Source: Spirochaetia bacterium
GTDB lineage: Bacteria; Spirochaetota; Spirochaetia; SZUA-6; Bin103
DNA: 64,000 nucleotides
Assembly (NCBI GenBank): GCA_965243545.1
Contig: OZ251573.1
Location: 596,217 to 660,216, forward strand
Direction: 5' to 3'
The notes below the pieces were generated by a model that made no database searches, was not told the DNA's origin, and saw nothing but the letters and a program-made list of their open reading frames with translations. The position numbers and the translations under genes are program-made. Positions 3,280-47,964 of the stretch are shown piece after piece. The first letter of the stretch is position 1, and each line of letters starts with the position of its first letter.

Positions 3280-3376
3280 CGCGCGGAACGGAACTGATCG
3301 CTGCTCGGCTCGGAGCGGGGGCGTTGCGCCCCCGCCCTGAGCCGGCACGCATGTAGGCGGGGGATAGCACGGCATC

Positions 3377-4403: not shown

Positions 4404-5657
4404 ATGGGCGACGCCGGCGTCGTCGAGAGCGGCGCTACGCCCGGCGACGGCGGCGGCTCCCCCAGCGACATCGAAGTCACCCACCTGTACAAGGTCTTCG
4501 GGCCGAACCCGCAGGCGGTGATGGCGCAGGTCGAGGCGGGCGTGAGCAAGGACGAAATCCTGGAGCGCACCGGCCACACGGTCGGCCTGGACGACGTGAA
4601 CCTCAGCATCAAGGGGGCGGAGACCTTCGTGGTGATGGGGCTGTCCGGCAGCGGCAAGTCGACCTTCGTCCGTTGCGTGAACCGGCTGATCGATCCCACG
4701 GCAGGCCAGATCATGCTCGACGGCGTCGACATCCTGCAGCTCGACCCGGGCGGGATCACGGCGATGCGGCGCACCAAGATGAGCATGGTGTTCCAGAACT
4801 TCGGGCTGCTCCCGCACCGCAGCGTGATCCGGAACGTCGCGTACGGCCTGCGGGCCCGCGGGGTGCCCAACGAGGAACGGCTGGAGCGGGCCGCCCGGTG
4901 GATCGAGATCGTCGGGCTACAGGGGTACGAGCGTCAGCGCCCGCGCCAGCTCTCCGGCGGCATGCAGCAGCGCGTCGGTCTGGCGCGGGCGTTCTGCACC
5001 GATCCGGAGATCCTGCTGATGGACGAGCCGTTCAGCGCGCTGGACCCGCTGATCCGCCGCGAGATGCAGGATGAGCTCGTGCGGCTGCAACGCGATCTGC
5101 GCAAGACGATCGTGTTCATCACCCACGATCTGGACGAGGCGCTGCGGCTCGGCGACCACATCGCCATCCTCAAGGACGGCAAGCTGGTGCAGGTCGGCAC
5201 CCCGACCGACATCATCACCAACCCCGCCGACGACTACGTGCGGGACTTCGTGAGCGACGTCAACCGCGCGCGCGTGCTCACCGCCGGCGCGGCGATGGAC
5301 GCGACCGCTCCTCTGCAACTCGACGCCGCCCCGCAGAGCGCCGTGACGGCGATGCGGCAGGCGGGACGGCGCATCGGCTTCGTGACCGGCGCCGACGGCA
5401 GCTACCGGGGCCATTGCGGGATCGAAGACGCGTCCGCCGCGGCCGAGCGCGGCGACAAGGACCTGAGCGGGATCGTACGCACGAGCGCCCCCACCGCCCT
5501 GGCGCACCGGACGCTCCACGAGATCCTGCCGCTGTCGGCCGAAAGCGACGTACCGGTCGCCGTCCTCGACGACGGCGACCGGTTTCTGGGGTTCCTCACC
5601 CGGCAGGGGGTACTCGCCGCGATCGCCGGCGACCGCACCTCGTCCGCCGGCGCCTAG
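4404..5657 (+). CDS. proV: Glycine betaine ABC transporter ATP-binding protein with C-terminal CBS-like domains (ProV/OpuAA)
   Basis: Walker A GLSGSGKST, signature LSGGMQQRV and Walker B LLMDEPFSALD are present. The ORF opens at 4320, but the ATG at about 4404 follows the proW stop. The C-terminal 130 aa are typical of ProV. Confidence 0.85.
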   Translation: MGDAGVVESGATPGDGGGSPSDIEVTHLYKVFGPNPQAVMAQVEAGVSKDEILERTGHTVGLDDVNLSIKGAETFVVMGLSGSGKSTFVRCVNRLIDPTAGQIMLDGVDILQLDPGGITAMRRTKMSMVFQNFGLLPHRSVIRNVAYGLRARGVPNEERLERAARWIEIVGLQGYERQRPRQLSGGMQQRVGLARAFCTDPEILLMDEPFSALDPLIRREMQDELVRLQRDLRKTIVFITHDLDEALRLGDHIAILKDGKLVQVGTPTDIITNPADDYVRDFVSDVNRARVLTAGAAMDATAPLQLDAAPQSAVTAMRQAGRRIGFVTGADGSYRGHCGIEDASAAAERGDKDLSGIVRTSAPTALAHRTLHEILPLSAESDVPVAVLDDGDRFLGFLTRQGVLAAIAGDRTSSAGA

Positions 5658-33823: not shown

Positions 33824-34958
33824 TCCGGGCGCTGCCATCATCCCCGGCGCCGCCGCTCGTGGCGTCGCCACTCGCGGCGCCGGCCAGCAGCGCCTCTACC
33901 TCCGCGGCAAGCCCGACCATCGCTCCCAGGTCGCGCAGTCCGGCGACGGTGGCGCCCCGTAGCGGCACGCCGTTGCGGAGCGCGTCGCGCTCCTTCTCGT
34001 GCTCGATGTCGCCCGGCAGATAGATGCGGTCCACGCCGGGCGCGCGCCGCGCGCCGCGCACCTGCCGGGCCAACCGCGCCATGCGCGCCTTGAACTCGGC
34101 CAGCGGCAGCAGGGGCTCGATGTCGACGGCGATGAAACTGTGCGCCTGGTCGCTGCGTCCGGCCGGGTCGGTCCCCCAATCGCGCATCTCCGCCATGATC
34201 GCGGCGCCGCCCAGCACGCCGGTCAGGCACTCGATCAGCAGCGCCAGCCCGGAGCCCTTGTAGCCGCCGAACGGCACCAGCGATCCGCCCTGCTTCATCG
34301 CGCCCGGATCGTTTGTCGGCGCGCCGCCGGCGTCGAGCGCCCAGCCTTCCGGGATCGATCGGCCTTCGCGCGCCGCGATCGCCAGCTTGGTGCCGGCCAC
34401 CGCGCTCATGGCCAGGTCGAGGTAGACCGCCTGATCGCCCGGTCCCGGCACGGCGCACGCCAGCGGGTTGTTGCCGACCGTGCGGCCGGCCCCGCCGGCG
34501 ACCGCCATGGTCGGATCGGCGTTGGTCATGGCCACGCCGGCCATGCCGGCGTCGGCGGCCATCTTGGCGTAATAGCCGGCGGCGGCGAAGTTGTTGCCGT
34601 CCCGCGCCACCACGAACGCCACGCCGTACCGGCGCGCCCGCTCGATCGCCAGTTCCATGGCGCGGTGGGCGATCAGCGGACCGAGCCCCGCGTCGCCGTT
34701 GAGCACCAGCGTCGCGCCGACGTCGCGTTCGATGGCGATGCGCGGCGCGGCGTTCATGCCGCCCGCCCGGACGTGCCGTATGTACGGCGCCAGCAGGGCG
34801 ACGCCGTGGCTGATGCCGCGCATCTCGTTCGCGGTCATAACCCGCGCCACGATCGCGGCGTCCCGGTCCGGCGCGCCCGCGGCCTGCAACGCGCGGGCGC
34901 TCAGGTCCCGCAGGGCGTCCGCCCGCACGCGCGGCGCGCCGCCGTTGCCGCCGCTCAT
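33810..34958 (-). CDS. Ldh_2 family (malate/L-sulfolactate/ureidoglycolate dehydrogenase-like) oxidoreductase
   Basis: TNPLACAVP, SLVPFGGYKGSGLALLIE. Start MSGGNGG. Confidence 0.75.
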   Translation of the reverse strand: MSGGNGGAPRVRADALRDLSARALQAAGAPDRDAAIVARVMTANEMRGISHGVALLAPYIRHVRAGGMNAAPRIAIERDVGATLVLNGDAGLGPLIAHRAMELAIERARRYGVAFVVARDGNNFAAAGYYAKMAADAGMAGVAMTNADPTMAVAGGAGRTVGNNPLACAVPGPGDQAVYLDLAMSAVAGTKLAIAAREGRSIPEGWALDAGGAPTNDPGAMKQGGSLVPFGGYKGSGLALLIECLTGVLGGAAIMAEMRDWGTDPAGRSDQAHSFIAVDIEPLLPLAEFKARMARLARQVRGARRAPGVDRIYLPGDIEHEKERDALRNGVPLRGATVAGLRDLGAMVGLAAEVEALLAGAASGDATSGGAGDDGSARNGGA

Positions 34959-37900
34959 CGCTCTGCCGGCCGGGCGAGGTACGCCAGCAGCGACGGGACG
35001 TAGCGGGTCTGGCTGGCCCAGTCCTTGCCGAAGCCGGCGTGGTCGGCGTCCCGGGAAGCGGCCGGCAGGTCGTCCAGGTCGCGCAGGCCGCGCTCCACGA
35101 TCCGCCGCAACTCGGCGTCGCCGGTCAGGGCGTGCGCGTAGGCCAGACCCTCGATCACCTGCCGCGTGTAGACCGGCTGCGGGCCGCCGCCGCGGCGCAG
35201 GCACGGCGTGTAGCGGAAGTGGCCGCTCGCCGCGTCGTAGGTGCGGCGGAGCAACCAGCGCACCCCGCCGCGGATCGCCTCCGCCACCCGTTCGTCGCCG
35301 GTCAGCTCGTGATAGCGGCGCAGGCCGGACAGCAGCACGCCGACCATGAAGCCGGCTTCTCCCCGTTCGCGCGGCGGCTCGCACCCGCAGTGCCCGGACT
35401 TGAGCACGCGCTCCCAGCCGCCTCCGGGCTCCTGCCGCTCCAGCACGCGGGTGACGATCAACGATGCGGCGTTGAGATAGCGGGGCGATTCGCTCATGCG
35501 CGCCAGCGCGGTGAGGTGGATCAGGTGCCAGCCGCACTCGCGGCAGTTGGCGAAGTCGTAGTGCCGGATGCCGCCGCCGAAGTCCTTGAGGCCGGCGCCG
35601 AGCAGCCAGCCGGCGGTGCGGTCGAGCGAATCGCGCACGTTCCGGTCGCCGGTCAGCAGGTAGTGGAGCGCCGGCCCCTCCACCCAGGTGTGCGAAGGCA
35701 CGCTGCTCGAACCGCTCATCTTGCTGCGGAAGTAGGGCGGCAGGTAGCCGCCGGCGTGGCCGGGCATGTGCGTGTACTGCGCGCCGACCTGATCGGGGTT
35801 GGCCGACGAGTTGATGGTGTCGACGTCGGCCAAGTGCCGCGCCGCTTCGGCGCCCAGGCCAGCCCAGCGCGGATCGCCGCCGCGCAGGAACTCGCTGTAG
35901 TGCGCGAACGGCGGGTCGTACTCATTGTTGCCCCACGACCAGACGCTCTCTCCGTACCAGTCGCCAAAGTTGACCCAGCCGTACTGGCGGCGGATGTCGC
36001 GGTCGGCCATCCACTGCTCACAGCCGCCGTCCACGGCGCGCTCATAGCCGGCCAGCAGCCCGGTGTCCTTGGCGGCCAGCGGGCCGAGCACGCCGCAGCC
36101 GTTGAGCCAGTCGAGCGACGGACGCACCGCCGGCGGGTCCTCGAACCAGGCGAGCAGCGCGTCGTCGCGCGGGCCGAAGGCGAGCAGCAGCTCGCTGGTG
36201 AGCGCCATGCCCGCCTTGAGCAGATAGCCGTCTTCGCGCAGCCAGAAGTCGGTGCGGTGCCAGCTCTCTTCGTCGCCGGGGCGCGCGGCGCCGCTCGGCG
36301 CCGGCAGCAGCTCCACCGCCACTTCGCCGCCGGTGACCCGGACGGCGCGCGGCCACGTCTGCCAGAAGCGGCGCAACGCCGCGGTGACGGTCTGCGCCGG
36401 CGCCTTCCCCGGTTCGGCGGCGGCGCTCACCGTGACGTGGCCGGCGACGCGGCCGGCCGCCTCCCGCGCTCCGCCGCCGTCTTCGACGCGGTGCCCCTGA
36501 TCGTGGTCGTGGATCAGGCGCACGGCCCCGGCGGCGGGAACCGCCGCGCCGCCGGCCGGTCCGCCCGGCCAGTCGACGCGGCCCCAGCGCGCCCGATCGC
36601 CGGCGCGGCGGACCGTCAACGACGCGGAGCGGACGGTGAGCAACGTCGCCTGCTCGCCGTCGGCGCCGGCGATCGCCCCGCGCACGGTGGCGGCGTGCGC
36701 GGGAATGTCATCGGCGCTGCCGCCGGCCGCCGGCGGCAGATGCGGTGAGCTCACCTGCAGGCGGTGGACGATGCGCACCGCCTGCAGCCCGCGGTAGACG
36801 TGGACGCGGACGGTGCTCACCAGGTGCGCGGTCCCGTCCGCGTCCGGGTGCGCGTAGCGGTAACGGATCACGGCGCGCTGCCATCCCTGCTCCTCGAGAG
36901 CGAGGTCGTGCACCGGCCCCTGGCGGAGCTCCGCGCCGCTGCCCAAGGTGAGCGCCGCGCCGCTGCCGGCGCCGGCGGCGCGCCACGGTCCGGCGCCGTC
37001 ACGCGTCTCGATCACCGGCAGCGGCTCATCCGCGCCGGCGGTGACCCGCACGCGCAACGAGCCGCCGGTCACCGACACCGCGCCATCCTCCGCCGCGCAA
37101 CGCAGGCCGCCCGGGGCCGGCGAGTCGCCGCTCCCCCCGTCCGCGGCGGTCACCGGCGGTGCGCCGCCGCCGGGCGGCGGATCGTTCCCCGCCGGGCGGA
37201 GCGTCACCGCGCCGGCGAGCCGCGCGCCGGCCGCGGCGGCTTGCGGCGGGCAGCCGTCGATCAGCACCCAGCTGGCCGAGCCGTCGGGCCAGAAGCCGTG
37301 CGGCCGGCACTGCACCGGCGCGGACGCGCCGCCCACGTCCCAGCGGCCCTCGACCGCGCCGGTCAGGCGGCCGCGCGGAACCGGCGCGCCAAAGGTGACC
37401 GGCAGCCCGCGCAGCTCCGCGTTGGCAAGATTGCAGAGCTCCACCGGCACGGTGACCGGGCCGGTGGCTGCGGCGCCGCCCTCGGCCGTGGTTGCGCCGG
37501 CCTCCGTCCCGCTCTCCGCTGCCATAGCGCCCGCCGCTACGGTAGGGCCGGCCGCGGTGACCCCGGCGGTCGCCTGCAGCCCGCCGGCCTCGGTGGCGCG
37601 GACCTGCGCCCGGTAGCCGGCCGCCGGCGGCGCCGGCAACCCGGTCACGGCGATCGAGTGCAGGCTCAGCAACTCCGCCTCCGCCGCGGTAGCGACCGTC
37701 CGCCCGGTGTCGGCGCGGGTCACCGTCACCTCGCACCGCGCCGCCGGCCGCGTGATGGCGTCGACGGCGACCGCGAACGAGCCGCCGGCGTTTCGCCGCA
37801 GGCGTGCGGTGAGCCGGTCGATGCGCGGCCGGTAGCAGGTCGGCTCCGGCCGCTCCCGGAGCAGCGCCACGCGCTCCAGCCGGTACGACGCATCGCCGGC

Positions 37901-38335
37901 GCCGACGATGCGCAGCACCTCCATCTCCCCCATGAACTCGACGGCGCGGTCCAGGACGTACAAGTGGCGCCGGTTGTCGTGCCGGAACGGCGTCATGCAG
38001 CCGACCGGATCGGCGCCCAGGGTCACCTCCAGCCGGCAGTCGAAGCCGTACTCGTCATACATCACCACGCCGACGAAGCGCCGGCCGGTATGGTCGTCGG
38101 CGCCGTCGATGGTGTCCCAGAAGCGGTGCCGCAGGACGGCCGGCAGGCCGGCGCGCGCGAAGCTGCGCGGCCGGTAGACGCTCCGGTAGGGATACGTCCC
38201 TGTCAGCCCGACGTCCGGCACCAGGCCGTCCAGGTTCTCGGCGGCGTCGGCCCGGAAGCTCACGGTTCCGGGCGCCGCGATCAGCGCGTCGATCCGCTCC
38301 GGCTCGGCTACGTCTATCGGCAGGGTTGGTTCCAT
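34955..38335 (-). CDS. Large (about 1126 aa) multidomain protein with a Cys/Trp-rich glycosidase/lyase-like C-terminal domain
   Basis: Real start taken as MEPTLPIDVAEPE. The upstream 490 aa of the 1615-aa ORF are antisense to the PmoA-family gene. Has an internal Ala/Gly/Thr linker and C-terminal WVNFGDWYGESVWSWGNNEYD..CRECGWH..GHCGCEPP. Confidence 0.55.
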   Translation of the reverse strand: MEPTLPIDVAEPERIDALIAAPGTVSFRADAAENLDGLVPDVGLTGTYPYRSVYRPRSFARAGLPAVLRHRFWDTIDGADDHTGRRFVGVVMYDEYGFDCRLEVTLGADPVGCMTPFRHDNRRHLYVLDRAVEFMGEMEVLRIVGAGDASYRLERVALLRERPEPTCYRPRIDRLTARLRRNAGGSFAVAVDAITRPAARCEVTVTRADTGRTVATAAEAELLSLHSIAVTGLPAPPAAGYRAQVRATEAGGLQATAGVTAAGPTVAAGAMAAESGTEAGATTAEGGAAATGPVTVPVELCNLANAELRGLPVTFGAPVPRGRLTGAVEGRWDVGGASAPVQCRPHGFWPDGSASWVLIDGCPPQAAAAGARLAGAVTLRPAGNDPPPGGGAPPVTAADGGSGDSPAPGGLRCAAEDGAVSVTGGSLRVRVTAGADEPLPVIETRDGAGPWRAAGAGSGAALTLGSGAELRQGPVHDLALEEQGWQRAVIRYRYAHPDADGTAHLVSTVRVHVYRGLQAVRIVHRLQVSSPHLPPAAGGSADDIPAHAATVRGAIAGADGEQATLLTVRSASLTVRRAGDRARWGRVDWPGGPAGGAAVPAAGAVRLIHDHDQGHRVEDGGGAREAAGRVAGHVTVSAAAEPGKAPAQTVTAALRRFWQTWPRAVRVTGGEVAVELLPAPSGAARPGDEESWHRTDFWLREDGYLLKAGMALTSELLLAFGPRDDALLAWFEDPPAVRPSLDWLNGCGVLGPLAAKDTGLLAGYERAVDGGCEQWMADRDIRRQYGWVNFGDWYGESVWSWGNNEYDPPFAHYSEFLRGGDPRWAGLGAEAARHLADVDTINSSANPDQVGAQYTHMPGHAGGYLPPYFRSKMSGSSSVPSHTWVEGPALHYLLTGDRNVRDSLDRTAGWLLGAGLKDFGGGIRHYDFANCRECGWHLIHLTALARMSESPRYLNAASLIVTRVLERQEPGGGWERVLKSGHCGCEPPRERGEAGFMVGVLLSGLRRYHELTGDERVAEAIRGGVRWLLRRTYDAASGHFRYTPCLRRGGGPQPVYTRQVIEGLAYAHALTGDAELRRIVERGLRDLDDLPAASRDADHAGFGKDWASQTRYVPSLLAYLARPAER

Positions 38336-38437
38336 GTCGCGCCCGCAGTCTACCGGAAACGCGCGGCGCGGCGGCGGCCGGCCGAAGCGTCCCGGGCGCG
38401 GTAGACGCGGCGGGCGACCTGCGCCACCGTAGGGGCC

Positions 38438-39367
38438 ATGGAATCCGCCAACGGCTTTGAGATTCGGCGCGCCGGCGCCTCCGATCAGATCGGCAACATG
38501 GTCGCGGAGACCGCCACCGGCCGCCTGCTCGGCGGCGTCGGCCACAACGACCTGCGTTCCTGGTGCTATCCGCTCAACACCCCGCGCGGACTCAACGTGG
38601 CGCAGGAGTACCCGTTCGATCACGCCTTTCACAACGGCGTGTTCGTGGCGCAGGCGTGCGTGGTGCGCGGCGGCGTGCTGTCCAACTTCTGGGTCGTGCA
38701 CCCCGACTGGCGCTCGCCCGACTCGCACGTCTACAACCACCTGGGGCAGATACGCCACGGGGAGCGCGCCGGCGTCACGCCGCTGCCGCGCGGCTACCGG
38801 TTCACCTACCGCGCCACCTGGACCGGCGCGGACGGCGGCCCGGTGCTCGACGAGGAGCGCCACTTCGACCTCTACGACGCCGGCGGCGCGACCGTCTGCG
38901 ACCTCACCTCCCGCAAGACCGCCGCCTACGGCGACCTGCTCTTCCGGGCCAACAAGCACGGCTCCCTGGGGGTGCGGGTACAGCCGCAGCTTCTGCCGCC
39001 GTTCGGAGGGGCGATGATCGCCGGCGCCGGCCGGGAGCTCCACCGCGGCGGCGCCGAGGTCGCGTTCGGCAAGGAGCGGGACTTCGTGGCGTACGAGGCG
39101 GCGCCGGCCGGCCTGCACCGCTTCGGCGTATGCCTGCTGGTCCTGGCCAACAGCGCCGGCGTGGGCGACAGCGCCGCCGGGCGCGGCGCCGGACCGTGGT
39201 TCGTCCGCGACTACGGGATGGCGATGTTCAACGCCACCATGACCGACGACGTGACGGTCGCCGCCGGGGAGACCTGGGAGGCGGCGTTGCGCGTCGTGGC
39301 GTATGACGGGGCGGTCTCCGTCGACCGCGCCGGCGCCTGGGCGGCGGCCCCGCGCGCGGCGGCGTGA
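38438..39367 (+). CDS. PmoA-family (DUF6807) protein
   Basis: YPLNTPRG..EYPFDHAFHNGVFVAQ..NFW matches the PmoA-family core. Confidence 0.55.
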   Translation: MESANGFEIRRAGASDQIGNMVAETATGRLLGGVGHNDLRSWCYPLNTPRGLNVAQEYPFDHAFHNGVFVAQACVVRGGVLSNFWVVHPDWRSPDSHVYNHLGQIRHGERAGVTPLPRGYRFTYRATWTGADGGPVLDEERHFDLYDAGGATVCDLTSRKTAAYGDLLFRANKHGSLGVRVQPQLLPPFGGAMIAGAGRELHRGGAEVAFGKERDFVAYEAAPAGLHRFGVCLLVLANSAGVGDSAAGRGAGPWFVRDYGMAMFNATMTDDVTVAAGETWEAALRVVAYDGAVSVDRAGAWAAAPRAAA

Positions 39368-39370
39368 CCG

Positions 39371-40369
39371 GTGACGACCACGGTCGTCGGCAGCTATCCC
39401 GTGCCCGAGTGGCTCAAGCGGAGCTCGGACCCGGAGGCGCTGGAAGACGCGCTGACGGTGGTGATCGACGCCCAGCGGCGCGCCGGCATCGAGCTGATCG
39501 GCGACGGCGAGCTCGGCCGCTGGGACCTGGAGCGGCGCGCGCCGGGCGGGATGGTGGAGCGGTTCGTCCGTCCCCTCGACGGGGTGAGCGCGGCGCTCAC
39601 CCGTAGCCAGCTCGACGCCTACCGCGCGCGCGCCGACATGGAGTTCCGCTCGGCGCCGCCCGGCGTGGTGGTGGGGCCGCTCGGCGACGGGCGCCTCAAC
39701 CTCAAAGCGGACTGGGACCGGGCGCGCGCCCGCACCGGCGCGCCGCTCAAGTTCACGGTGTCCAGCCCCTATCTCATCGCCAAGACCGTGGCCGACGCCC
39801 ATTACGGCGACTTGGAGTCGCTGGCCGCGGCGTTCGCCGATCTGCTGGCCGGGCAGCTGGCCGGCATCGGCGCCGCGGTGGTGCAGGTCGACGAGCCGAA
39901 CCTGCCGGGCTCACCCGGTGACGGCGCGCTGGCCGCCGCCGCCATCAACCGGCTGCTCGACGGGGTCGAGCGCGGAACGGAGCGGGCCGTGCACCTCTGC
40001 TTCGGCAACTACGGCGGCCAGCGGCTGCAGTACGGTGACTACGGGCGGCTGATCGACTTCATGAACGCGCTCCGTTGCGATCACTTGGTGCTGGAGACCA
40101 CCCGCCGCGCGCCGGCGGAGATCGACCGCCTGCGCGGCGTGCGCGCCGGCCTCCGCCTGGGGCTCGGCGTGATCGACGTCAAGGACCTGCAGGTGGAGAC
40201 GCCGGACCGGGTGGCGCGGCGCATCGAGGCGCTGGCGCGCGCCGTCGGCGCCGAAAGGATAGCCTACGTCCATCCCGATTGCGGCCTGCGGGTGCTGCCG
40301 CGCCCCGTGGCCGACGGCAAGCTGCGGGCGCTCACCGCCGGCCGCGACCGCTACCTGGGCAGAATCTGA
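39371..40369 (+). CDS. Cobalamin-independent methionine synthase (MetE) catalytic-domain-like protein
   Basis: TTVVGSYPVPEWL..ELIGDGE..HLCFGNYGG..YVHPDCGL. GTG start 4 nt after the PmoA-family stop. Confidence 0.7.
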   Translation: MTTTVVGSYPVPEWLKRSSDPEALEDALTVVIDAQRRAGIELIGDGELGRWDLERRAPGGMVERFVRPLDGVSAALTRSQLDAYRARADMEFRSAPPGVVVGPLGDGRLNLKADWDRARARTGAPLKFTVSSPYLIAKTVADAHYGDLESLAAAFADLLAGQLAGIGAAVVQVDEPNLPGSPGDGALAAAAINRLLDGVERGTERAVHLCFGNYGGQRLQYGDYGRLIDFMNALRCDHLVLETTRRAPAEIDRLRGVRAGLRLGLGVIDVKDLQVETPDRVARRIEALARAVGAERIAYVHPDCGLRVLPRPVADGKLRALTAGRDRYLGRI

Positions 40370-40371
40370 CC

Positions 40372-41427
40372 ATGGCCGGCACGGTCGCCAAGCCCCACGA
40401 TCACCTGTTCCGCTCCGTGTTCCGGAACGAGTCCGAGGCGGCCGCCCTGCTGCGCGCCAACCTGCCGCAGATGATCACCGACGCCGTGATCTGGTCCACC
40501 CTGAGGCGGCGCGACCGCAGTTTCATCGACGACCGGTTGCGCGACAGCGAATCGGACCTGCTGTTCGAGGTGCGGCGCAAGCCCGACCGCGCGCCGGCAT
40601 GGCTGTACGTCCTGCTGGAGCACCAGTCGACGCCCGACTTCTGGTTGCGGCTGAGGGTCCTGAAGTACAGTATCAGAATCTGGGAGGAGGAGCGCGAACA
40701 GCGCCCTGCGGAGGAGTACTTGCGCCCGATCGTCCCGCTGGTGCTGTATCAAGGGACGCGCGGCCGCTGGACACCGGCGTGCGAGTTCGCGGAACTGTTT
40801 GCTCCCGACGTGCGCGACTGGCCGGCGGTGCCCCGCTACGCGCATCTGCTGATCGACCAGACGCAGGCGCGGCCGGAGGACCTGCGCGGCGAGGTGCGCG
40901 GCCGTAGCGCGCAGCTGGCGCTGATGGCGGCGGCCCGGGAGAGCTGGGAGCTGCTGAGGCCGTTGGTGCCGCTGCTGGCAGAGATGATGCGGCAGGGCGG
41001 GGGCATCGGCGAGTTGCGCCGGTTCGTGGTGTACGTGGCGGCGACGACGAGGAGGGACCCGGAGCGCTGGAACCGATTCGCGGAAGCGGTACGGCGCGAC
41101 GTGCCGGGAGGAGAAGAACTGATGACCGATACGCGCGAAATGCTTGAAGCCTACGGCGAAGTGGTAGAGGAAGAGGCCCTTCAGAAGGGTCTCCGGCAGG
41201 GGCGCCAGGAAGGCCGCCAGGAGGGGCGCCAAGAAGGCCACCAGGAGGGCCGCCAGGAGGGCCGCCAGGAAGGCCGCCAGGAAGGCGTACTGCGCACCAT
41301 CGAGGGACTTGTGGGCCGAAACGTCCCGTGGTCAACGATAGAAGCCGCCACCGGAATCGACGAGGCAGAATTCAAGCGGCTCAGGCAGCAACCGGACTCC
41401 GCCGTTGGCGGGGCGGCCCGGCAGTAG
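40372..41427 (+). CDS. Rpn/YhgA-like PD-(D/E)XK recombination-promoting nuclease/putative transposase with a C-terminal (R/H)QEG repeat
   Basis: AKPHDHLFRSVF..DLLFEV..LLEHQS, then GRQEGRQEGRQEGHQEGRQEGRQEGRQEG. Confidence 0.7.
   Translation: MAGTVAKPHDHLFRSVFRNESEAAALLRANLPQMITDAVIWSTLRRRDRSFIDDRLRDSESDLLFEVRRKPDRAPAWLYVLLEHQSTPDFWLRLRVLKYSIRIWEEEREQRPAEEYLRPIVPLVLYQGTRGRWTPACEFAELFAPDVRDWPAVPRYAHLLIDQTQARPEDLRGEVRGRSAQLALMAAARESWELLRPLVPLLAEMMRQGGGIGELRRFVVYVAATTRRDPERWNRFAEAVRRDVPGGEELMTDTREMLEAYGEVVEEEALQKGLRQGRQEGRQEGRQEGHQEGRQEGRQEGRQEGVLRTIEGLVGRNVPWSTIEAATGIDEAEFKRLRQQPDSAVGGAARQ
41196..41286 (+). repeat. 12-bp tandem repeat (CGCCAGGAAGGC-like, about 7-8 units) encoding the RQEG repeats
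   Basis: Read directly. Confidence 0.8.
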
Positions 41428-41481
41428 TGGGCGTCGCGGTCAGTGGAGCGTTCGCACTCCGAGACCGGGCAACGATAGCGT

Positions 41482-41504
41482 CCGATAATAGCCATTGTCA
41501 GAGG
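41482..41504. repeat. Left 23-bp inverted repeat flanking the tyrosine recombinase gene (CCGATAATAGCCATTGTCAGAGG)
   Basis: Matches the reverse complement of 42801..42823 at 20/23 positions. Contains the internal dyad ATAGCC-N9-GGCTAT. Confidence 0.65.
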
Positions 41505-41733
41505 CTATGCTACGGCTGAGCCGGCTTCGCGCCGTTCCGCCCGGTACCCGTCCGCCGATCACGGCCGGTACTCAAGCATGGCGCGCGCAAGGGTGTCAAC
41601 CCCTGATCCAACCCGTTCCGTCCCGGGCTTCGGCTTGAGCCGATTCGCGCACGATAGGTCCGCGCGGTCGTCGTAACATTCTTGTGGTAAAGTAGTTGCA
41701 TATCTGACCGGCGCTTGGCCCGGCATACTACCC

Positions 41734-42792
41734 CTACTCGACCGTCGGGCCGCCGTCGCGGGCCATCCCGTACCTGAGCCGCGCCACCGGGCCGCGCGTG
41801 GCCTCCAGACGCCGCGCGTAGTGGGCCGGCATCCGAGACGATCTCCAATCGGCAGCCAGCTGCATATCGACCAGCCCCGCCCCGGCCGCCGCCAGGGACT
41901 GCGCCGACCCCACCCGTAACGAGTGACCGGACACCCGGCCGCCGATGCCGGCAGCGGCGGCGCGCCGCGTGATGATGTCCCGGATCGACCGCGCGCTGAG
42001 CCGTTCGCCAATGGCGCCGCCCCTGTTGATGCGCCGGAACAGCGCGCCGTCGGCCGGCGCCTCCGCCACCAGCAGCCGGTAACGCCGGAGGGCCGCGATT
42101 GTCGGGGGGCCAAGGTAGCGCTCGTGGCCTCGTCCCTCCTGGTCGGTCTTGGACCGGCGGACGGTCAAGATGCCATCGCCGCGCGGATTCTCAATCACGT
42201 CGGCGAAGTCGAGCGCCGCAAGCTCGGACACCCGCAGCATGGCATCGCTTCCCACCCGGATCAACGCGCCGTCGCGCAGTCCGGCTGGCGAGCCGCCGCT
42301 CTCAGCGAGCTGCGCCGCCCGATCGGCGTCTTCCCAGCCCACCCCGTCAACCTGCCCTCGGGTGCGGGGGTTCGTTCTGACGATGCACCGCATGAGTTGG
42401 CGGACGGCTTCGTGGGCCGTGGGGTCGCCGGCGCCCGCGGCGCGGTGGCCTGCTGCGATACTGGCGCGGTCCACTTGCACGGTGGCCGGCGACAAGCCGG
42501 CCATCGCCCGTTCTTTCAGATAGGCGGCCACGGCGTCCGGATGCGCGGGCAAGACGTGGGCGCCGCGATAGGCGGCCCATCCCTGCCACCGCTCCCATCC
42601 TGCGTCGTAGGCGCGGCGCGTGTTGGGGGCGTGAGCGTTACGTTCGATGTCGGCGTTGGTGGCGATGCCGGCCAACGGCGATTCAAGGTCGTCGATGTTC
42701 GTGTCGTGGTATTCCATGACCCAAGGCTGCGCGGCCGGAGTGGCCTGTTGACCGGCGACGCCCGGTAGCTGAGCCCTCTCTTCTTCCTCCAT
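41734..42792 (-). CDS. Tyrosine-type site-specific recombinase/integrase
   Basis: R..HSLRVGSAQ..RMPAHYARR catalytic motifs (His-x-x-Arg, Tyr). Confidence 0.8.
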   Translation of the reverse strand: MEEEERAQLPGVAGQQATPAAQPWVMEYHDTNIDDLESPLAGIATNADIERNAHAPNTRRAYDAGWERWQGWAAYRGAHVLPAHPDAVAAYLKERAMAGLSPATVQVDRASIAAGHRAAGAGDPTAHEAVRQLMRCIVRTNPRTRGQVDGVGWEDADRAAQLAESGGSPAGLRDGALIRVGSDAMLRVSELAALDFADVIENPRGDGILTVRRSKTDQEGRGHERYLGPPTIAALRRYRLLVAEAPADGALFRRINRGGAIGERLSARSIRDIITRRAAAAGIGGRVSGHSLRVGSAQSLAAAGAGLVDMQLAADWRSSRMPAHYARRLEATRGPVARLRYGMARDGGPTVE

Positions 42793-42800
42793 ACGGTTTT

Positions 42801-42823
42801 CCTCTGCTAATGGCTATTGTCGG
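42801..42823. repeat. Right inverted repeat (CCTCTGCTAATGGCTATTGTCGG) immediately upstream of the recombinase start
   Basis: Read directly. Confidence 0.65.
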
Positions 42824-42928
42824 AAGATAACGTGTCGCGGTAAACGCCTCGGCACTGATAGACCGCGGCGCGCGCCAGACGAAGCGGGACCGCCGCCAAG
42901 GCCCTTCCCGGACGTTGACGTTCGCGCG

Positions 42929-43606
42929 TTGCCGGTGGTCCGACGCGCGCGCCAGAGGATCGCCCTCCGGCTGGTGGGGCGATGCACCCAGGCGTTCGCG
43001 CACCGACTCCTGCTCTGCGCGCTGGCCGTGGCCCTCACCGCCGGCGTGGCGCTGGCCGACCACGACACCGCGCCGGCGGAACCGCTACGCGTAGCCGTCG
43101 AGCCGGCCGGCCCTTCCGTCGGCCCGCCCGACGCGCCGGTCACCATCGTCGAGTTCTCCGACTTTCAGTGCCCCTTCTGCGCTGCCCTGCAGCCGGCCCT
43201 GGACCGCGTCAAGACCGAGTACGCCGGCCGCGTACGGCTGGTGTTCCGGCACTTCCCCTTGACCGGCATCCACCCCGATGCGTGGCGCGCCGCCGAGGCT
43301 GCCGCCTGCGCGGACGAGCAGGGCCGGTTCTGGGACCTGCACGCGCTGCTGTTCAGCGAGCAAGCGGCGCTGTCGGCCGGCGACCTGCGACAGAAGGCGG
43401 CGCGCCTCGGCATGGACACGGCGGCGTTCGGCGCCTGTCTGGATGACCGCCGCTACCACGACGCCGTTCACGCCGACGTGGACGCCGGCATCGAGGCCGG
43501 CGTCGAGGGCACGCCGACGCTGTTCATCAACGGCCGGCCGGTGGCCGGCGCAGTGCCGTTCGAGGAGCTGGCGGCGCTGATCGACGACGAGTTGCGAAGG
43601 CGGTGA
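42929..43606 (+). CDS. DsbA-like thiol:disulfide oxidoreductase (thioredoxin fold, CPFC active site), membrane-anchored/secreted
   Basis: N-terminal hydrophobic segment; FQCPFCAAL; C-terminal GTPTLFINGRPV. Confidence 0.8.
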   Translation: MPVVRRARQRIALRLVGRCTQAFAHRLLLCALAVALTAGVALADHDTAPAEPLRVAVEPAGPSVGPPDAPVTIVEFSDFQCPFCAALQPALDRVKTEYAGRVRLVFRHFPLTGIHPDAWRAAEAAACADEQGRFWDLHALLFSEQAALSAGDLRQKAARLGMDTAAFGACLDDRRYHDAVHADVDAGIEAGVEGTPTLFINGRPVAGAVPFEELAALIDDELRRR

Positions 43607-43977
43607 CGGTGGTGGTCCTGCCGGCCGGCGACGTACGGACCGTGACGGCGGCCGACTTCGCGCCCGCCCTGGTGGCCGCGCTACGGCCCAGGGTGACCGC
43701 AGCTCTGGAAGGCGCCCCGGTGCGCTTGCCGGGCGGCTGCAGGCTGCGCGCCGCCGACTTGGGCGCCGTGGTGCTTGCCAGCGTGACCGACGGCGCCGGC
43801 GCCGCGGTGCTGACGCTGACCCTGCATCGAACCGACCTGGACGGGCGCGATTGGTCGCACCTGCGCGCCGTCCGCCCCGACCTGCCCCGATCCATGCCGG
43901 CGCCCTGGTGCGCCGTGACCCCGCGCGCCGGCCCCGTCGCCGCCTGCCTGGCGGCCCTGTGGGCTGCGGGAGGGTAG
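43603..43977 (+). CDS. Hypothetical protein (124 aa)
   Basis: GTG start overlapping the dsbA stop (GTGA). Confidence 0.3.
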   Translation: MTVVVLPAGDVRTVTAADFAPALVAALRPRVTAALEGAPVRLPGGCRLRAADLGAVVLASVTDGAGAAVLTLTLHRTDLDGRDWSHLRAVRPDLPRSMPAPWCAVTPRAGPVAACLAALWAAGG

Positions 43978-44038
43978 CGCCATGCCGTAGCACGCCGGCC
44001 GATCAACTCGCAACACGAAACGACCCAAGGAGGGAACG

Positions 44039-44857
44039 ATGAAACGACGATTGATAGGCGTGGCCGTGGCGGCCGTGCTGCTGATCGCCGGCGCCGCGCC
44101 GGCGGTGGTAGCCAATGATGATGTGGTGTGGACATCCGTCATCTGCTGGAAATCTCACACTCAAAGCTTTGAGCGGCCTGCTTACGGTGATGATCACGCA
44201 GCGGCGCTTGCTTTCGCAGAGTCGCTGTGTGAATCGCACCACGGCGGATCGCTGACCCGGCCGGCGCGCCAAGAAGGCGATACGTCCGTCGAATGCTGGT
44301 TCAGTCACTACAACACGAGCCGCAACTTCAACACCGAAGCCGCGTGCACGGATGAAGGCGGATCGCTGACCCGCCCGGCCCCGCCGTCGTCCGTGCCGGC
44401 GTCGGTGACGTGTTGGACCGATCCAAACACGAGCACGACGGCCAACGGAACCGGAGCGAACGTGAACGATGCTTTGGCTGCGGCGCGCCAAGCGTGCCGG
44501 GATAGCGGCGGATCGACGACCAGGCCGGTCACCGCATCGGTGACCTGTTGGTGGGATCACGACCCGAGCACGATCGATCGGAACGGCACGACTGCGGCCG
44601 CTGCTACTGCTGCGGCGACGGCGGCCTGCACGGCTAGCGGCGGATCGCTGACTAGGCCGCCGCCACCTTCGGCATCGGTGACCTGCTGGACTGACCACAA
44701 CACAAGTAGCACGATTACGCGGGCATCCTACGGTAGTGCCATCGCTGCGGCGACGAAGGCTTGCACGGCTAGCGGCGGATCGACGATTAGGCCGCCGGCG
44801 CCAACGCGGCGAAAGAGCTATAGTCCCAGAGTAAGCGATTCGGGTAGGCGGGGTTGA
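44039..44857 (+). CDS. Secreted cysteine-pair tandem-repeat protein (module A x5; C-terminus truncated/altered at the IS junction)
   Basis: Start is preceded by AAGGAGGG and followed by a signal peptide. Carries five 40-aa modules: SVTCW(T/W)D.NTS...AA..AC..SGGSLTRP. Confidence 0.7.
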   Translation: MKRRLIGVAVAAVLLIAGAAPAVVANDDVVWTSVICWKSHTQSFERPAYGDDHAAALAFAESLCESHHGGSLTRPARQEGDTSVECWFSHYNTSRNFNTEAACTDEGGSLTRPAPPSSVPASVTCWTDPNTSTTANGTGANVNDALAAARQACRDSGGSTTRPVTASVTCWWDHDPSTIDRNGTTAAAATAAATAACTASGGSLTRPPPPSASVTCWTDHNTSSTITRASYGSAIAAATKACTASGGSTIRPPAPTRRKSYSPRVSDSGRRG

Positions 44858-46560
44858 AACGGGTCCTCCTAAGTGCTATAATCGGAAGTACCTAAACCCA
44901 ACCGGTCAAGCACCGAAGAGGACCCGAAATGATTCAGTCACCACCAGAATACACGGCTGACGATGCTTGTCAACCCCAATTCTCCCATCCCCGCCTTCGG
45001 GCCGAGCCGCGCGGTGGCGCCCCGCTGGTGAGCTGGTCCGGCTTGGGCATCGTGCACGGGCTCGTCGAGCGGCTTGAAGTGGCGCCGGTGATCGACTCTG
45101 CGGTGCGCGTGCTGCGGCGGCACAAATGGTATACCGAGTCGGACCACGTGCTGACGCTGGCCTACAACATGCTCAGCGGCGGGAACACCCTCAGCGACAT
45201 CAACTGGCTGCGCGCCGACGAAGGATTACGCCGGCTGTTGGGCGGCGCGCGGGTGCCGCATGCCACCACGGTCGGGGATTTTCTGGCTCGCTTCGACGGC
45301 AAGCGGGAGCAGTGCAGCGACCGGGATCAGCTGGCGGGGGAGCTGGCGCGGAGCGAGTTACGTGAGGCGGTCGAGGAGATACAGCAGCGGGCGTTCGGGT
45401 TGCTGCCGCGGTCGCGGCGGCGGGTGGCGACGCTGGACTGGGATTCGTCGATCCACGAAGTGTATGGGGAGCAGAAGGAAGGCGCGGACTTCAGCTACGA
45501 CAGGCGGTGGAGCTACAGCAGTCTGTACGGGACGGTGGCGGAGACCGGAGACGTGCTGCATCTGGGACTGCACGAAGGCAGCCGGCATACCAGCTACGGG
45601 ATCAAGGAGGTGTTGCCGAGAACGATCGAGCGGGTCCGGAAGCACTTTCGACAGGTGCGGATGCGCGCTGACAGTGGCTACTACGATCAGGAGATCGTGG
45701 ACATCTGCGCGGAGCGCGGGGTGGAGTTCTACATCGTGGCGAAGCAGCGGCAGAATCTGCTGCGGGCCGTGCACGGGCTCCCGGAGAGCGCATGGCGTCC
45801 ACTGGCGCCGATCAGGGAGCGGTCGGGCCGGCGCCGGCGGAAGCGGCGGGAGAACGTGAAGCGCAAGATCAGCCGGCAGCGCAAGCCTGACCAGTGGTAC
45901 AAGGGGACGCCGGAAGTGGCCAGGATGATGTTCCGACCGACGAGTTGGAAGAAGGGCTATCGGTACGTGATCAAGCGGACGCCGATCCACGACGCGGACG
46001 GCAAGCAAGAGTACCTCGACGGGATGAGAAAGTATGCGTACTGGATCGTGGTGACGAACTCGAAACGGAGCAACACGGCGGTGCTGAGGACCGCGCAGGG
46101 GCGGGGCAATCAGGAGAATCTGATCAAGGACCTGAAGGAGGGGCTGGGACTGTCCCATGTTCCGACCGGGTTGCTGGGAGCCAATCAAGCGTACTTCGTG
46201 ATCGCGGCGTTGGCGTGGAACCTGAAGACTTGGATGCTCAACCTGTTGGAGTTGGGAGATGGCGCGGTGCTGCGCTGCAAGCGGTTTCTGTACCTGTGGA
46301 TATGCCGGGCCGGCGTGGTTGCCAAGACTGGCCGGGACGGCGTGCTGCTCAAGCTGTCGGCCGGCGAGTACCACCAGAGGTTCAGCGCCGCGCTGGCACG
46401 ACTGGCGACGCTGTAGGGAAGTCTGGGACGGGTGTTGACGAGATGGCAGGGGTAGTCTGCCCTGATGGCGTCACCTGAAGTCCCACAGGCCGCCAAATCG
46501 CCACTGGCTTGGTCAACTCAAAGGGTTGACGCGGTTCTCACACTGCGGATGCCCAGAATG
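44858..46560 (+). mobile_element. IS1380-like (IS4 superfamily) insertion sequence, about 1.7 kb; ends approximate
   Basis: Single transposase ORF. Flanks 44816-44857 and 46566-46620 are paralogous module-coding sequences. Terminal IRs could not be confidently identified by eye. Confidence 0.55.
44929..46416 (+). CDS. IS1380-family DDE transposase
   Basis: C-terminal GRGNQENLIKDLKEGLGLSHVPTGLLGANQAYFVIAALAWNL is characteristic of IS1380-family transposases. Confidence 0.7.
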   Translation: MIQSPPEYTADDACQPQFSHPRLRAEPRGGAPLVSWSGLGIVHGLVERLEVAPVIDSAVRVLRRHKWYTESDHVLTLAYNMLSGGNTLSDINWLRADEGLRRLLGGARVPHATTVGDFLARFDGKREQCSDRDQLAGELARSELREAVEEIQQRAFGLLPRSRRRVATLDWDSSIHEVYGEQKEGADFSYDRRWSYSSLYGTVAETGDVLHLGLHEGSRHTSYGIKEVLPRTIERVRKHFRQVRMRADSGYYDQEIVDICAERGVEFYIVAKQRQNLLRAVHGLPESAWRPLAPIRERSGRRRRKRRENVKRKISRQRKPDQWYKGTPEVARMMFRPTSWKKGYRYVIKRTPIHDADGKQEYLDGMRKYAYWIVVTNSKRSNTAVLRTAQGRGNQENLIKDLKEGLGLSHVPTGLLGANQAYFVIAALAWNLKTWMLNLLELGDGAVLRCKRFLYLWICRAGVVAKTGRDGVLLKLSAGEYHQRFSAALARLATL

Positions 46561-46665: not shown

Positions 46666-47964
46666 GTGTGCTGGAGTAGTCATGACACCAGCAGGACGAT
46701 GGCACAGCGAGCCTATACTCGTGCCCGGGCTAGAGGTATGGTGGAGAGGGCCTGCAGGCGTAGCGGCGGATCGCTGACGCAGCCGGCCGCGCCGGCCCCG
46801 ACGCCGCCGCCTCCGCCTGCGCCTACGCCGCCGGCCCGCCAAGAACAGGCCGCGCCGGCGTCGAGTGGCGGATCGTCGAACGGCGGTTCATCGAACGGCG
46901 GTTCATCGAATGGCGGATCGTCGGACGGCGGTGGATCGTCGAACCGCGGATCATCGAACCGCGGATCGTCGACGAGCGGTACAACATCGCCTCTTCGCGA
47001 TTCATATACATCGACGGTGACTTGCCATGACGGCAGTATAACTCGTGGGTTGGGTTCGTCACGTGATGCCGCTTTGGCTGATGCTACCGCCAAATGTCCG
47101 CTTGTTGAGGCGACGGTGACTTGCCCTGATGGCAGTCAGTTTACGCGATCATCTCGCATATCGCAAGCCGACGCCAGAACGAAAGCGCGTCGGCTGTGCC
47201 CGGCGTCGGAGCCGGAAGACGATGGCGTTTCGGGTGATACGATCCAACGCCCATATAGCGCGACGGTTACGTGTTCTGACGGCACACGATCAACGGCATC
47301 GTCGAAAACGTCGCATGCTGACGCCGAAGACAAAGCGCGGCAACGGTGTTCGTCGCCTACGGCACCGGAGCCTCCAGACACTGATAGTGAATCGAGCGAA
47401 TCGAGCGGATCATCGAGCAGATCGAGTGTTCTGTTGCCCTATAGAGCGAGAATTAGGTGTGCGGACGGTAGTTGGAAGCACGGATCCTCTGCATTTTCTC
47501 GGGACGCTGCGGTGACGCTAGCGAGAGCCCAATGTCCGGTTTATACCGCTACGGTTACGTGCAGTGACGGTAGCTTACGAAGGGCTGCTTCCCGCGTATC
47601 AAATTCCGATGCTGCGTCAAGCGCGCGCGCTCAATGCCCGAGAGAGTATACTTGGTCGTTCACCTGCGAGAGCGAGCACCTTAGCCCGCGCGAGGTCACG
47701 GGGAGATCCACGGTATCGGTCGCTGACGCTGAGCGCGAAGCGCGCAGTGCCTGCGATGTCGCTATAGGTAATGTTCCGGACCCCGACCCTGACGATTCGC
47801 TGCCGAGTGACGACTCACTAGCAAAGCAGGCCCACGAAGCCCAGGAAGCCAATCAACGGAGCCGCGGTCGTGGCGGCAGCCGTGGCGGAGGTGGTGGCGG
47901 CATTCCTATGAGCGCGTTCACGGAGTGCCCTGGGGAAGTTGGGCCGGCCTGCCCCGATGACTAA
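46666..47964 (+). CDS. Cysteine-pair tandem-repeat protein (one A-type module, Ser/Gly linker, about six B-type modules, acidic C-terminal tail); no signal peptide
   Basis: CWSSHDTSRT..ACRRSGGSLTQP, then (Y.ATVTC.DGS....S..DA....AR..CP) repeated six times. GTG start; a degenerate module remnant is visible in another frame at 46540-46620. Confidence 0.6.
   Translation: MCWSSHDTSRTMAQRAYTRARARGMVERACRRSGGSLTQPAAPAPTPPPPPAPTPPARQEQAAPASSGGSSNGGSSNGGSSNGGSSDGGGSSNRGSSNRGSSTSGTTSPLRDSYTSTVTCHDGSITRGLGSSRDAALADATAKCPLVEATVTCPDGSQFTRSSRISQADARTKARRLCPASEPEDDGVSGDTIQRPYSATVTCSDGTRSTASSKTSHADAEDKARQRCSSPTAPEPPDTDSESSESSGSSSRSSVLLPYRARIRCADGSWKHGSSAFSRDAAVTLARAQCPVYTATVTCSDGSLRRAASRVSNSDAASSARAQCPREYTWSFTCESEHLSPREVTGRSTVSVADAEREARSACDVAIGNVPDPDPDDSLPSDDSLAKQAHEAQEANQRSRGRGGSRGGGGGGIPMSAFTECPGEVGPACPDD
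46866..46972 (+). repeat. 15-bp tandem repeat encoding the (GGSSN)n linker
   Basis: Read directly. Confidence 0.8.

Follow-up and report, generated by a model that had tools for sequence, protein, structure and literature searches.

The 64-kb window analysed here, a single stretch of the genome of a Spirochaetia bacterium (contig OZ251573.1, positions 596,217 to 660,216; coordinates below count from its first letter), carries at 41474-42831 what we interpret as an invertible cassette of 1.3 kb, that is, a gene for a Cre-like tyrosine recombinase placed between two cognate, inverted lox-like sites and transcribed divergently from a neighbouring DsbA gene. We estimate at roughly 0.55 the probability that this cassette is a substrate of recombinase-mediated inversion and that the inversion controls the neighbouring gene. 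A more detailed proposal, in which the flip joins a small open reading frame (ORF) of the cassette in frame to DsbA, falls in our judgement somewhat short of an even bet.

A Cre-like recombinase and its two sites

The recombinase gene (41734..42792, minus strand) encodes 352 amino acids, with an alternative conserved start at Met26 (42717), and matches the Pfam families PF00589 (Phage_integrase) and PF02899 (SAM-like N-terminal domain), as expected from the original prediction, made from the sequence alone, that the ORF enclosed by a pair of inverted repeats is a tyrosine recombinase. In a phmmer search of PDB, residues 51-339 align with residues 34-338 of P1 Cre (E=2.7e-19), a match that spans both domains, and 17 of the 17 proteins retrieved are Cre or derived from Cre. 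The six catalytic residues of the window enzyme, R187, K215, H290, R293, W316 and Y325, are aligned to those of Cre and stand in columns that are invariant or near-invariant across 33 homologues; the residues that define the Cre type are R173, K201, H289, R292, W315 and Y324 of Cre (PMC10250229). Scores against the NCBIfam models of Xer recombinases are 34.3 bits for XerC (cut-off 335), 33.4 for XerD (330) and 26.1 for XerA (220). In every feature that can be tested from its sequence, the window recombinase is of the Cre type and belongs to neither the Hin nor the Xer family. A segment of the Hin/Gin/Cin type was ruled out because the enzyme is a tyrosine and not a serine recombinase, so that only the layout is alike.

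The two repeats lie where the original prediction had placed them: the left 23-mer (41482-41504, CCGATAATAGCCATTGTCAGAGG) and the right one (42801-42823, CCGACAATAGCCATTAGCAGAGG) match at 20 of 23 positions as reverse complements, and a repeat search lets the pair grow to 41 nt at 78% identity (41464-41504 / 42801-42841), which makes it the longest inverted repeat of the surrounding 3.7 kb (40300-44000). A degenerate form of the 23-mer, with up to three mismatches, finds these two copies and no other in the whole window, and has no match in dinucleotide-preserving shuffles (n=100); the window thus holds a single cassette and no further site. The dyad ATAGCC-N9-GGCTAT, once ascribed to both repeats, is present in the left copy (41488-41508), whereas the right copy has GGCTAT without its partner ATAGCC. 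The symmetry that both copies have in common consists of arms of ~15 bp around an asymmetric spacer of 6 bp. Accordingly delimited, the left lox-like site (41474..41509) comprises the outer arm GATAGCGTCCGATAA, directed toward the Rpn gene on that side, the spacer TAGCCA (41489-41494) and the inner arm TTGTCAGAGGCTATG, directed toward the cassette, and the right site (42796..42831) comprises the inner arm GTTTTCCTCTGCTAA, the spacer TGGCTA (42811-42816) and the outer arm TTGTCGGAAGATAAC on the DsbA side. Since the two spacers are reverse complements of each other, the sites are inverted, and an enzyme of the Cre type is predicted to invert the 1.3-kb segment between them. A lox-like target near the gene, with inverted arms of ~13-15 bp around an asymmetric spacer of 6-8 bp, is what Cre-type systems have, and a segment between inverted sites with a recombinase gene at the locus is what invertons have; the window presents both. 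The right repeat does fall, as had been proposed, in the 5' region of the recombinase gene, where the complement of the inner arm GTTTTCCTCTGCTAA provides a Shine-Dalgarno-like GAGGAAAAC 7 nt before the ATG.

In this family the two arms of a site change together. The half-site core in the window cassette and its family is CCGAYAA, the site of locus L002 that is equivalent to the left site is a perfect 32-bp palindrome except for its core, and compensatory changes are found at three arm positions in nine loci, both arms of one site changing jointly, lineage by lineage. Covariation of this kind marks a palindromic site that is bound by a protein and evolves together with it. Along with the paired sites that flank the gene in 24 loci, it supports the view, already advanced in the original prediction, that the repeats should be taken as core sites of a recombinase and not as a phage attachment site.

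Two observations on the sites stand apart from this argument. A half-site of the form (G/T)CCGATAA, found in the window at 41482-41489 and also in L083 and L003, is identical to the -10 consensus of sigma-28 (FliA), GCCGATAA; no TAAA -35 element was seen upstream of these half-sites, and the likeness is probably a coincidence. A recombinase promoter read by hand over the outer arm of the right site (TTTACC-N17-GACAAT) received no support from any tool and is set aside as speculation.

Inversion among relatives of the cassette

A protein search with the recombinase gave 2,368 relatives. One of them, P0001, is 94% identical, and it shares with its paralogues P0031 and P0036 the 4.6-Mb contig that is listed as the longest for each of them. 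A genome scan yielded 224 related loci, 80 of which were fetched and examined (loci designated L below), and sites were sought in them as inverted repeats and with the motif CCGNNAA-N6-TTNNCGG. The fetched relatives come almost entirely from metagenome-assembled genomes of the kind recovered from marine sponges and represent more than 10 phyla, among whose groups are Spirochaetia, Gammaproteobacteria, Chloroflexota, Nitrospinota, Acidobacteriota, Entotheonella, Poriferihabitaceae, Latescibacterota, Binatia and Rhodothermales; many of these genomes are multicopy, with up to five recombinase copies. No relative of the recombinase was found on the viral contigs searched, and the plasmids searched gave matches of at most 39% identity, so that these searches lend no support to a phage or plasmid origin of the cassette. 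Full-text literature searches recovered no description of this recombinase clade, which appears to be a large and apparently undescribed Cre-like clade of sponge symbionts.

Paired inverted sites with reverse-complementary spacers were found in about 45 of the fetched loci, in many phyla and in three layouts. The sites flank the recombinase gene itself in 24 loci, including the window; they lie just upstream of it, ~180 bp apart from start to start, in ~21 loci; and in four loci they lie downstream of it, 2.7-2.9 kb apart. Inverted states are seen in the second and third layouts. Two upstream-layout loci, L042 and, in a different genome, L076, carry the ~160-bp segment in the orientation opposite to that of ~20 other loci, and collinear homology restarts exactly at the sites; immediately next to the recombinase-proximal site, this segment holds a sigma-70 promoter (TTGACA-16-TATATT with TG, 11/12 consensus positions). 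Of the downstream-layout loci, L047 has the 2.8-kb segment turned around with respect to L041, L033 and L053, with the switch at the site, and both orientations are represented among the segments compared (L047 2551-3844; L041 7543-8847; L053 6842-7981; L033 6892-7960). The segment of 2.7-2.9 kb in Acidobacteriota/Aminicenantes carries CCGATAA-N6-TTATCGG sites at its ends and a 658-amino-acid ORF inside.

Breakpoints also coincide with sites in the flanking layout. In the Pseudomonadales chromosome OY762824.1, a 1.4-kb unit is present at least four times (86-98% identity), and what the copies have in common extends as far as the downstream site; between L020 and L046, whose flanks are unrelated, homology is confined to the cassette, from site to site; and homology between the window and L002 (77% protein identity) runs through DsbA on one side and stops on the other where the left site has its outer edge (41474). 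Taken across the family, these comparisons favour an invertible cassette that elsewhere also behaves as a discrete multicopy module. The idea of a self-inverting or self-mobilising cassette, put forward in the original prediction, is partly supported: relatives do invert, and homology between them breaks at the sites; for the window locus itself we infer inversion.

Other repeated elements were noticed in the same genomes. A repeat family of ~250 bp surrounds the Cre-like cassettes of OY762824.1 (L062 993-1237, 1592-1837, 1855-2016 and 5273-5517; L064 2150-2380). Elements of ~2.3-2.6 kb are multicopy in OZ241875.1 (L022, L031, L037, L042, L056) and in CBDBEV01 (L039, L051, L058, L080), and are built in the order site, ~160-bp invertible promoter, second site, Cre-like recombinase and a convergent gene for a 239-amino-acid HTH_17 (excisionase-like) protein.

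The cassette interior and the DsbA gene

The repeats had been said to flank the integrase ORF only. This proved too narrow, as they also enclose ~225 bp of conserved sequence (41510-41733) with 84% column identity among three loci, and a profile of this region finds the half nearest the left site in Spirochaetia loci whose recombinases are as little as ~60% identical. On the recombinase-sense strand it contains a promoter-like block that we call P_out (41570..41599, minus strand), directed outward through the left site and made of TTGACA (41594-41599), an 18-nt spacer with TGn, and TTGAGT (41570-41575). The block is conserved in 9-11 Spirochaetia loci, likewise down to 60% recombinase identity, as an invariant TTGACA followed 17-18 nt downstream by a TGn-TNNNNT block, and a conserved RTG codon stands at a fixed spacing of 6-7 nt past the -10-like hexamer. 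The 11/12 sigma-70 match of the upstream layout occupies a position that corresponds to that of P_out. From the conservation of these elements, and not from any promoter scan, P_out would be an outward promoter with a leaderless start. The RTG opens a small ORF (41440..41562, minus strand) whose first codon and the 23 that follow lead through the left site; it has 40 codons in the window and 25 in most relatives, and in every locus checked it is uninterrupted and its frame is unchanged, the single indel being of 9 nt and in frame.

Two other features of the interior may be recorded. A structured RNA in the ~225-bp region was ruled out by Rfam, which gave no match at gathering or E-value thresholds, and by RNAalifold, which on nine sequences and both strands found no conserved fold besides the site palindrome. 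An AT-rich block (41670..41706; TCGTAACATTCTTGTGGTAAAGTAGTTGCAT on the plus strand), just past the recombinase stop and surrounded by DNA of 70% GC, is kept in six loci (the window, L001, L002, L083, L085 and L089), is deleted in L087 and was undetected in L003-L006 and L036.

The right neighbour of the cassette, and putative target of the switch, is a DsbA/Thioredoxin_4 gene (42929..43606, plus strand; Pfam) that encodes a signal peptide and is divergent from the recombinase gene. It is followed by a coupled ORF of 124 amino acids (43603-43977), beyond which lie genes for Cys-rich repeat proteins. The frame of DsbA is open back to the right site, through a linker (42832..42928, plus strand) that contains neither a stop nor a start codon in that frame, so that 42929 is the first possible start. 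Inspection by eye revealed no ribosome-binding site or promoter before the candidate starts of DsbA; a promoter for this gene that had been read by hand found no support from any tool and is left as speculation.

Relative to the site, the frame of DsbA is that of the small ORF (TCT GMY AAT GGC TAT TRT CGG). From the edge of the site to the DsbA signal peptide the fusion frame contains 0 stops in seven of seven loci, whereas the other two frames over the same interval contain stops in 12 of 14 instances. The interval itself varies across lineages (42, 120, 168, 171 and 177 nt), and every length is a multiple of three. When inversion was simulated with the crossover in mid-spacer, the ORF that begins at the RTG continued without a break into DsbA in all nine DsbA-linked loci. 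In DNA of 70% GC an open in-frame linker is suggestive rather than conclusive; as a rough estimate, the probability of this frame pattern arising by chance is ~1e-3.

A sister lineage offers an instance of DsbA being read through the site. On contig L090, the protein P0229 is a DsbA of 419 amino acids whose translation runs in the same frame through the site from a start (AGGAGG-N6-ATG) placed 43 codons upstream of it. L090 and L091 are 92% identical from the site onward, L091 carrying the usual divergent recombinase cassette, and their homology ends precisely where the 20-bp core has its inner edge; both contigs have the spacer TCGCAG, and the inner arm reads CCGCTAA in one and CCGACAA in the other. 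On the sequence of these two contigs, it was recombination at this L090 site that gave DsbA, in nature, a 5' expression module of another kind, and the site there is part of the translated frame. Upstream of DsbA, L090 also contains fragments of a group II intron maturase (GIIM) and of IstB_IS21 (2672-3429).

The gene past the right site is of another kind in L087, where a lipoprotein (LAGC lipobox; 150-310) with its own AAGGA ribosome-binding site takes the place of DsbA; the open frame that leaves the site ends there by overlapping the start codon of the lipoprotein gene (ATGA).

Synteny and neighbouring genes

The cassette is adjacent to DsbA in the window and in L001, L002, L083-L086, L088, L091, L003 and L005. 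Along this series the recombinase has diverged down to 60% identity, and DsbA in parallel with it, while the cassette stays adjacent and in the same orientation. In L086 the recombinase beside DsbA (4609-5657) is split into ORFs of 103 and 218 amino acids, probably a frameshift pseudogene; both sites are still near-perfect and the cassette may be locked.

The left neighbour of the window cassette (40369-41427, plus strand) belongs to the Pfam family Rpn/Transposase_31, the assignment given to it at the outset. A role for this gene, whose kind the original prediction had linked with recombination hotspots, is not supported, because the flanking gene differs among orthologous cassettes and Rpn is thus incidental: only the window and L001 have it beyond the left site, a peptidase M19 gene occupying this place in L002 and L086 and a BNR_2 gene in L083-L085, L087 and L088. 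Despite these three different gene groups, the left-side flanking gene is directed toward the cassette in eight of eight loci. The C-terminus of the window Rpn protein is encoded by ~8 tandem repeats of 12 nt (QEGR; 41159-41297), which gave spurious FliH/Yae1 matches.

Farther out, an IS1380-family transposase gene (44929-46416; NCBIfam, 274 bits) lies downstream of DsbA, between the genes for two unannotated Cys-rich repeat proteins (44039-44857 and 46666-47964), and here the synteny of the window with L001 is lost. The statement that no tRNA is nearby needs a small qualification: ARAGORN calls a tRNA-Tyr(GTA) 6 kb off (35205-35293), inside an ORF of 1615 amino acids (34955-39802, minus strand), and, as Rfam at its gathering threshold reports no tRNA at this position, the call is probably a false positive.

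Discussion

If the paradigm of Cre applies, recombinase monomers would bind the four half-sites of ~15 bp, strands would be exchanged within the identical spacer TAGCCA and the segment would flip. The window would show the OFF state, in which the small ORF stops shortly past the site and DsbA is left without a recognisable promoter or ribosome-binding site. In the inverted orientation, which would be ON, everything would become co-directional, from Rpn through the recombinase, the promoter and the small ORF, the latter fused in frame to DsbA and its operon. The predicted junctions are GATAGCGTCCGATAATAGCCA joined to TTAGCAGAGGAAAACCGTATG and GTTATCTTCCGACAATAGCCA joined to TTGTCAGAGGCTATGCTACGG, and the sites of the inverted form would read GATAGCGTCCGATAA-TAGCCA-TTAGCAGAGGAAAAC and GTTATCTTCCGACAA-TAGCCA-TTGTCAGAGGCTATG. 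In the ON state, read-through from the flanking gene would transcribe the recombinase, and this could bias the switch back to OFF; it is tempting to speculate that such a bias could explain why the assemblies contain a single state. A broader version of this proposal sees in these loci a horizontally spread family of sponge-symbiont cassettes, each a self-contained “expression site” with its own recombinase gene, promoter and leaderless start, whose inversion or exchange makes an in-frame N-terminal fusion and turns on an operon for secreted proteins, the units also multiplying as modules; we regard it as possible, though less likely than not.

Several observations weigh against inversion as a switch of DsbA. 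One orientation of the cassette relative to DsbA, or to the equivalent gene, is found in all of the window, L001, L002, L083-L089, L091, L003 and L005, and the heterogeneity of orientation for which the original prediction had proposed to look was found at this locus in no assembly. The predicted ON junction for this layout occurs in 0 of the assemblies examined, and two scans of JGI metagenomes for empty or inverted states, one with the DsbA-proximal block and one with the promoter block, gave 0 matches. A strict sigma-70 scan of 41300-43000 misses P_out, in which position 2 of the -10 element is not A, and returns as its sole match a weak one inside the left site. As for the fusion, the linker has no third-position bias and is therefore not conserved as protein, only “open and in frame” being kept; open frames of 40-60 codons are not rare in DNA of 70% GC; and cassettes of the same layout in other phyla (L020, L046, L062-L064, L067 and L077 were compared) have neither the promoter nor the small ORF and follow no consistent frame logic. 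A search with a hypothetical fused DsbA of the window's lineage found no such protein among 5.8 billion. Finally, the left side of L090 is not simply an inverted cassette, since its 8-kb contig contains no recombinase and only ~45 nt beside the site resemble the small ORF.

The orientation data and the family data have to be weighed against other explanations. One of them takes the cassette for a selfish module, comparable to an insertion sequence, whose sites are termini and which spreads, in the manner of pdif modules, by site-specific recombination or cassette exchange between copies; the window copy would then be a resident without regulatory function, the match of the DsbA frame being incidental. 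Against the at least four copies of the 1.4-kb unit in the Pseudomonadales genome, each ending at its downstream site, and against the multicopy state of many genomes (e.g. OY762824, OZ241875) in more than 10 phyla, which implies horizontal transfer, has to be set the window, with one copy and no further site in 64 kb; nor were relatives found on the viral contigs searched, and plasmid matches stay under 40% identity. It is true that L020 and L046 have nothing but the cassette in common, and that the flank past the left site varies among close relatives with its breakpoint at the site. The other side of the Spirochaetia cassettes behaves differently, DsbA being retained there in a constant orientation down to 60% recombinase identity, and the JGI scan with the DsbA-proximal pattern recovered no empty DsbA-adjacent site. 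A simple tyrosine-recombinase reaction, moreover, cannot excise the DNA between inverted full sites, and a selfish module leaves the promoter-like box, the small ORF and the frame match unexplained. On balance we consider this explanation unlikely.

We think it decidedly unlikely, too, that the sites do not invert at all, but now act in protein binding or as landing sites, the cassette being either a locked relic with an autoregulating recombinase or the bearer of attB-like targets for the exchange of other DNA, an exchange that would account for the variable flanks and for L090. The uniform orientation in all assemblies is what this explanation would expect, the recombinase of L086 is probably a pseudogene, the site of L090 is joined to a different 5' module and not to an inverted cassette, and the overlap of the right site with the Shine-Dalgarno sequence of the recombinase would suit autoregulation. 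The inner arms of the window can be read both ways: they depart from the consensus (CTGACAA and CTGCTAA), which is a point against inversion here, yet both are altered in parallel and correspond to variant half-sites that are frequent in the family (e.g. CTGATAA). In the window and most relatives an intact recombinase retains every catalytic residue, the in-frame linker has been kept open through several indels, and relatives do invert.

A dif-like role in the resolution of chromosome dimers by a dedicated single recombinase, as in the XerS/difSL and XerH/difH systems, where the recombinase gene is likewise adjacent to its site, had been raised in the original prediction and is very improbable, for although the window gene does adjoin its site and gives weak XerC/D matches, there are two inverted sites, the Xer scores of ~26-35 bits (~34 for XerC/D) lie far from cut-offs of 220-335, paralogues share one contig and reach five copies elsewhere, the best structural relative is Cre, and no GC-skew switch was found at the locus, in a profile that is uninformative as a terminus signal.

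A recombinase-driven inversion switch, the reading we prefer, has counterparts of several kinds. The window enzyme resembles those of Cre/loxP (P1), Vika/vox and Nigri/nox in its full-length homology to Cre and in the catalytic R, K, H, R, W and Y (PMC10250229). The Cre-type systems are alike also in the inverted arms of 13-15 bp, the short asymmetric spacer and a target within 1 kb of the gene. By comparison with loxP, the sequence of the window site is unrelated and its central asymmetry extends over 6 bp (8 bp with the flanking A/T); two chromosomal inverted sites here bracket the recombinase gene, the host is the chromosome of a symbiont rather than a phage or plasmid, and the predicted role is gene switching rather than dimer resolution or circularisation.

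In the Hin/hix system of Salmonella, the recombinase gene and an outward promoter lie inside a segment bounded by inverted sites, and the adjacent operon is driven in one orientation only. This layout, which serves flagellar phase variation, is the one that we propose for the window cassette. Hin, however, belongs to the serine recombinases and depends on Fis and an enhancer, whereas the window enzyme is a Cre-like tyrosine recombinase, and the window switch would, unlike Hin, also deliver a start codon and N-terminal codons by way of an in-frame site. In the vsa/HvsR, vpma/Xer1 and vsp/Mbr systems of Mycoplasma, tyrosine recombinases encoded next to the locus invert a unique promoter or 5' region onto silent genes (PMC2268961). 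The likeness resides in this “expression-site” logic, with inversion sites in the 5' region of genes; the Mycoplasma systems serve multigene families through Xer- or lambda-Int-like recombinases encoded outside the inverting units, whereas the window has a single target (a DsbA or, in the family, a lipoprotein gene) and a Cre-like recombinase inside the segment.

The fimS/FimB-FimE system and the invertons of the Bacteroides type place a short promoter segment between inverted repeats beside a tyrosine recombinase gene. Relatives of the upstream layout, such as L031 and L056, match this design exactly, and the OFF bias proposed here is similar to the orientational control of FimE; in the window, by contrast, the invertible DNA includes the recombinase gene, and full lox-like palindromes take the place of simple repeats of 9-30 bp. 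The pdif modules of Acinetobacter plasmids are bounded by XerC/D sites in inverted orientation and occur in varied contexts. They resemble the multicopy Pseudomonadales cassettes and the L020/L046 pair, with the difference that pdif modules rely on the XerC/D of the host and have no recombinase of their own, whereas the window cassette encodes one. The locus would thus join the chemistry and site design of Cre/lox, a layout like that of Hin and the “expression-site” logic of Mycoplasma, and it seems best classed as a site-specific inversion switch.

To our knowledge, Cre-type recombinases are known mainly from phages, plasmids and laboratory tools, and their natural roles on chromosomes are poorly documented. 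The locus and its relatives suggest that a large, uncharacterised clade of DNA invertases, in at least three layouts, is present in host-associated bacteria, and if the proposal holds this family would supply dozens of new natural pairs of recombinase and site, with different spacers and arms, for genome engineering. Were the proposed switch confirmed, a site lying within an ORF would let one inversion deliver promoter, start codon and leader peptide together, which would be a previously undescribed natural use of a Cre/lox-type system for phase variation in animal symbionts, and the adaptations known from sponge symbionts would come to include phase variation.

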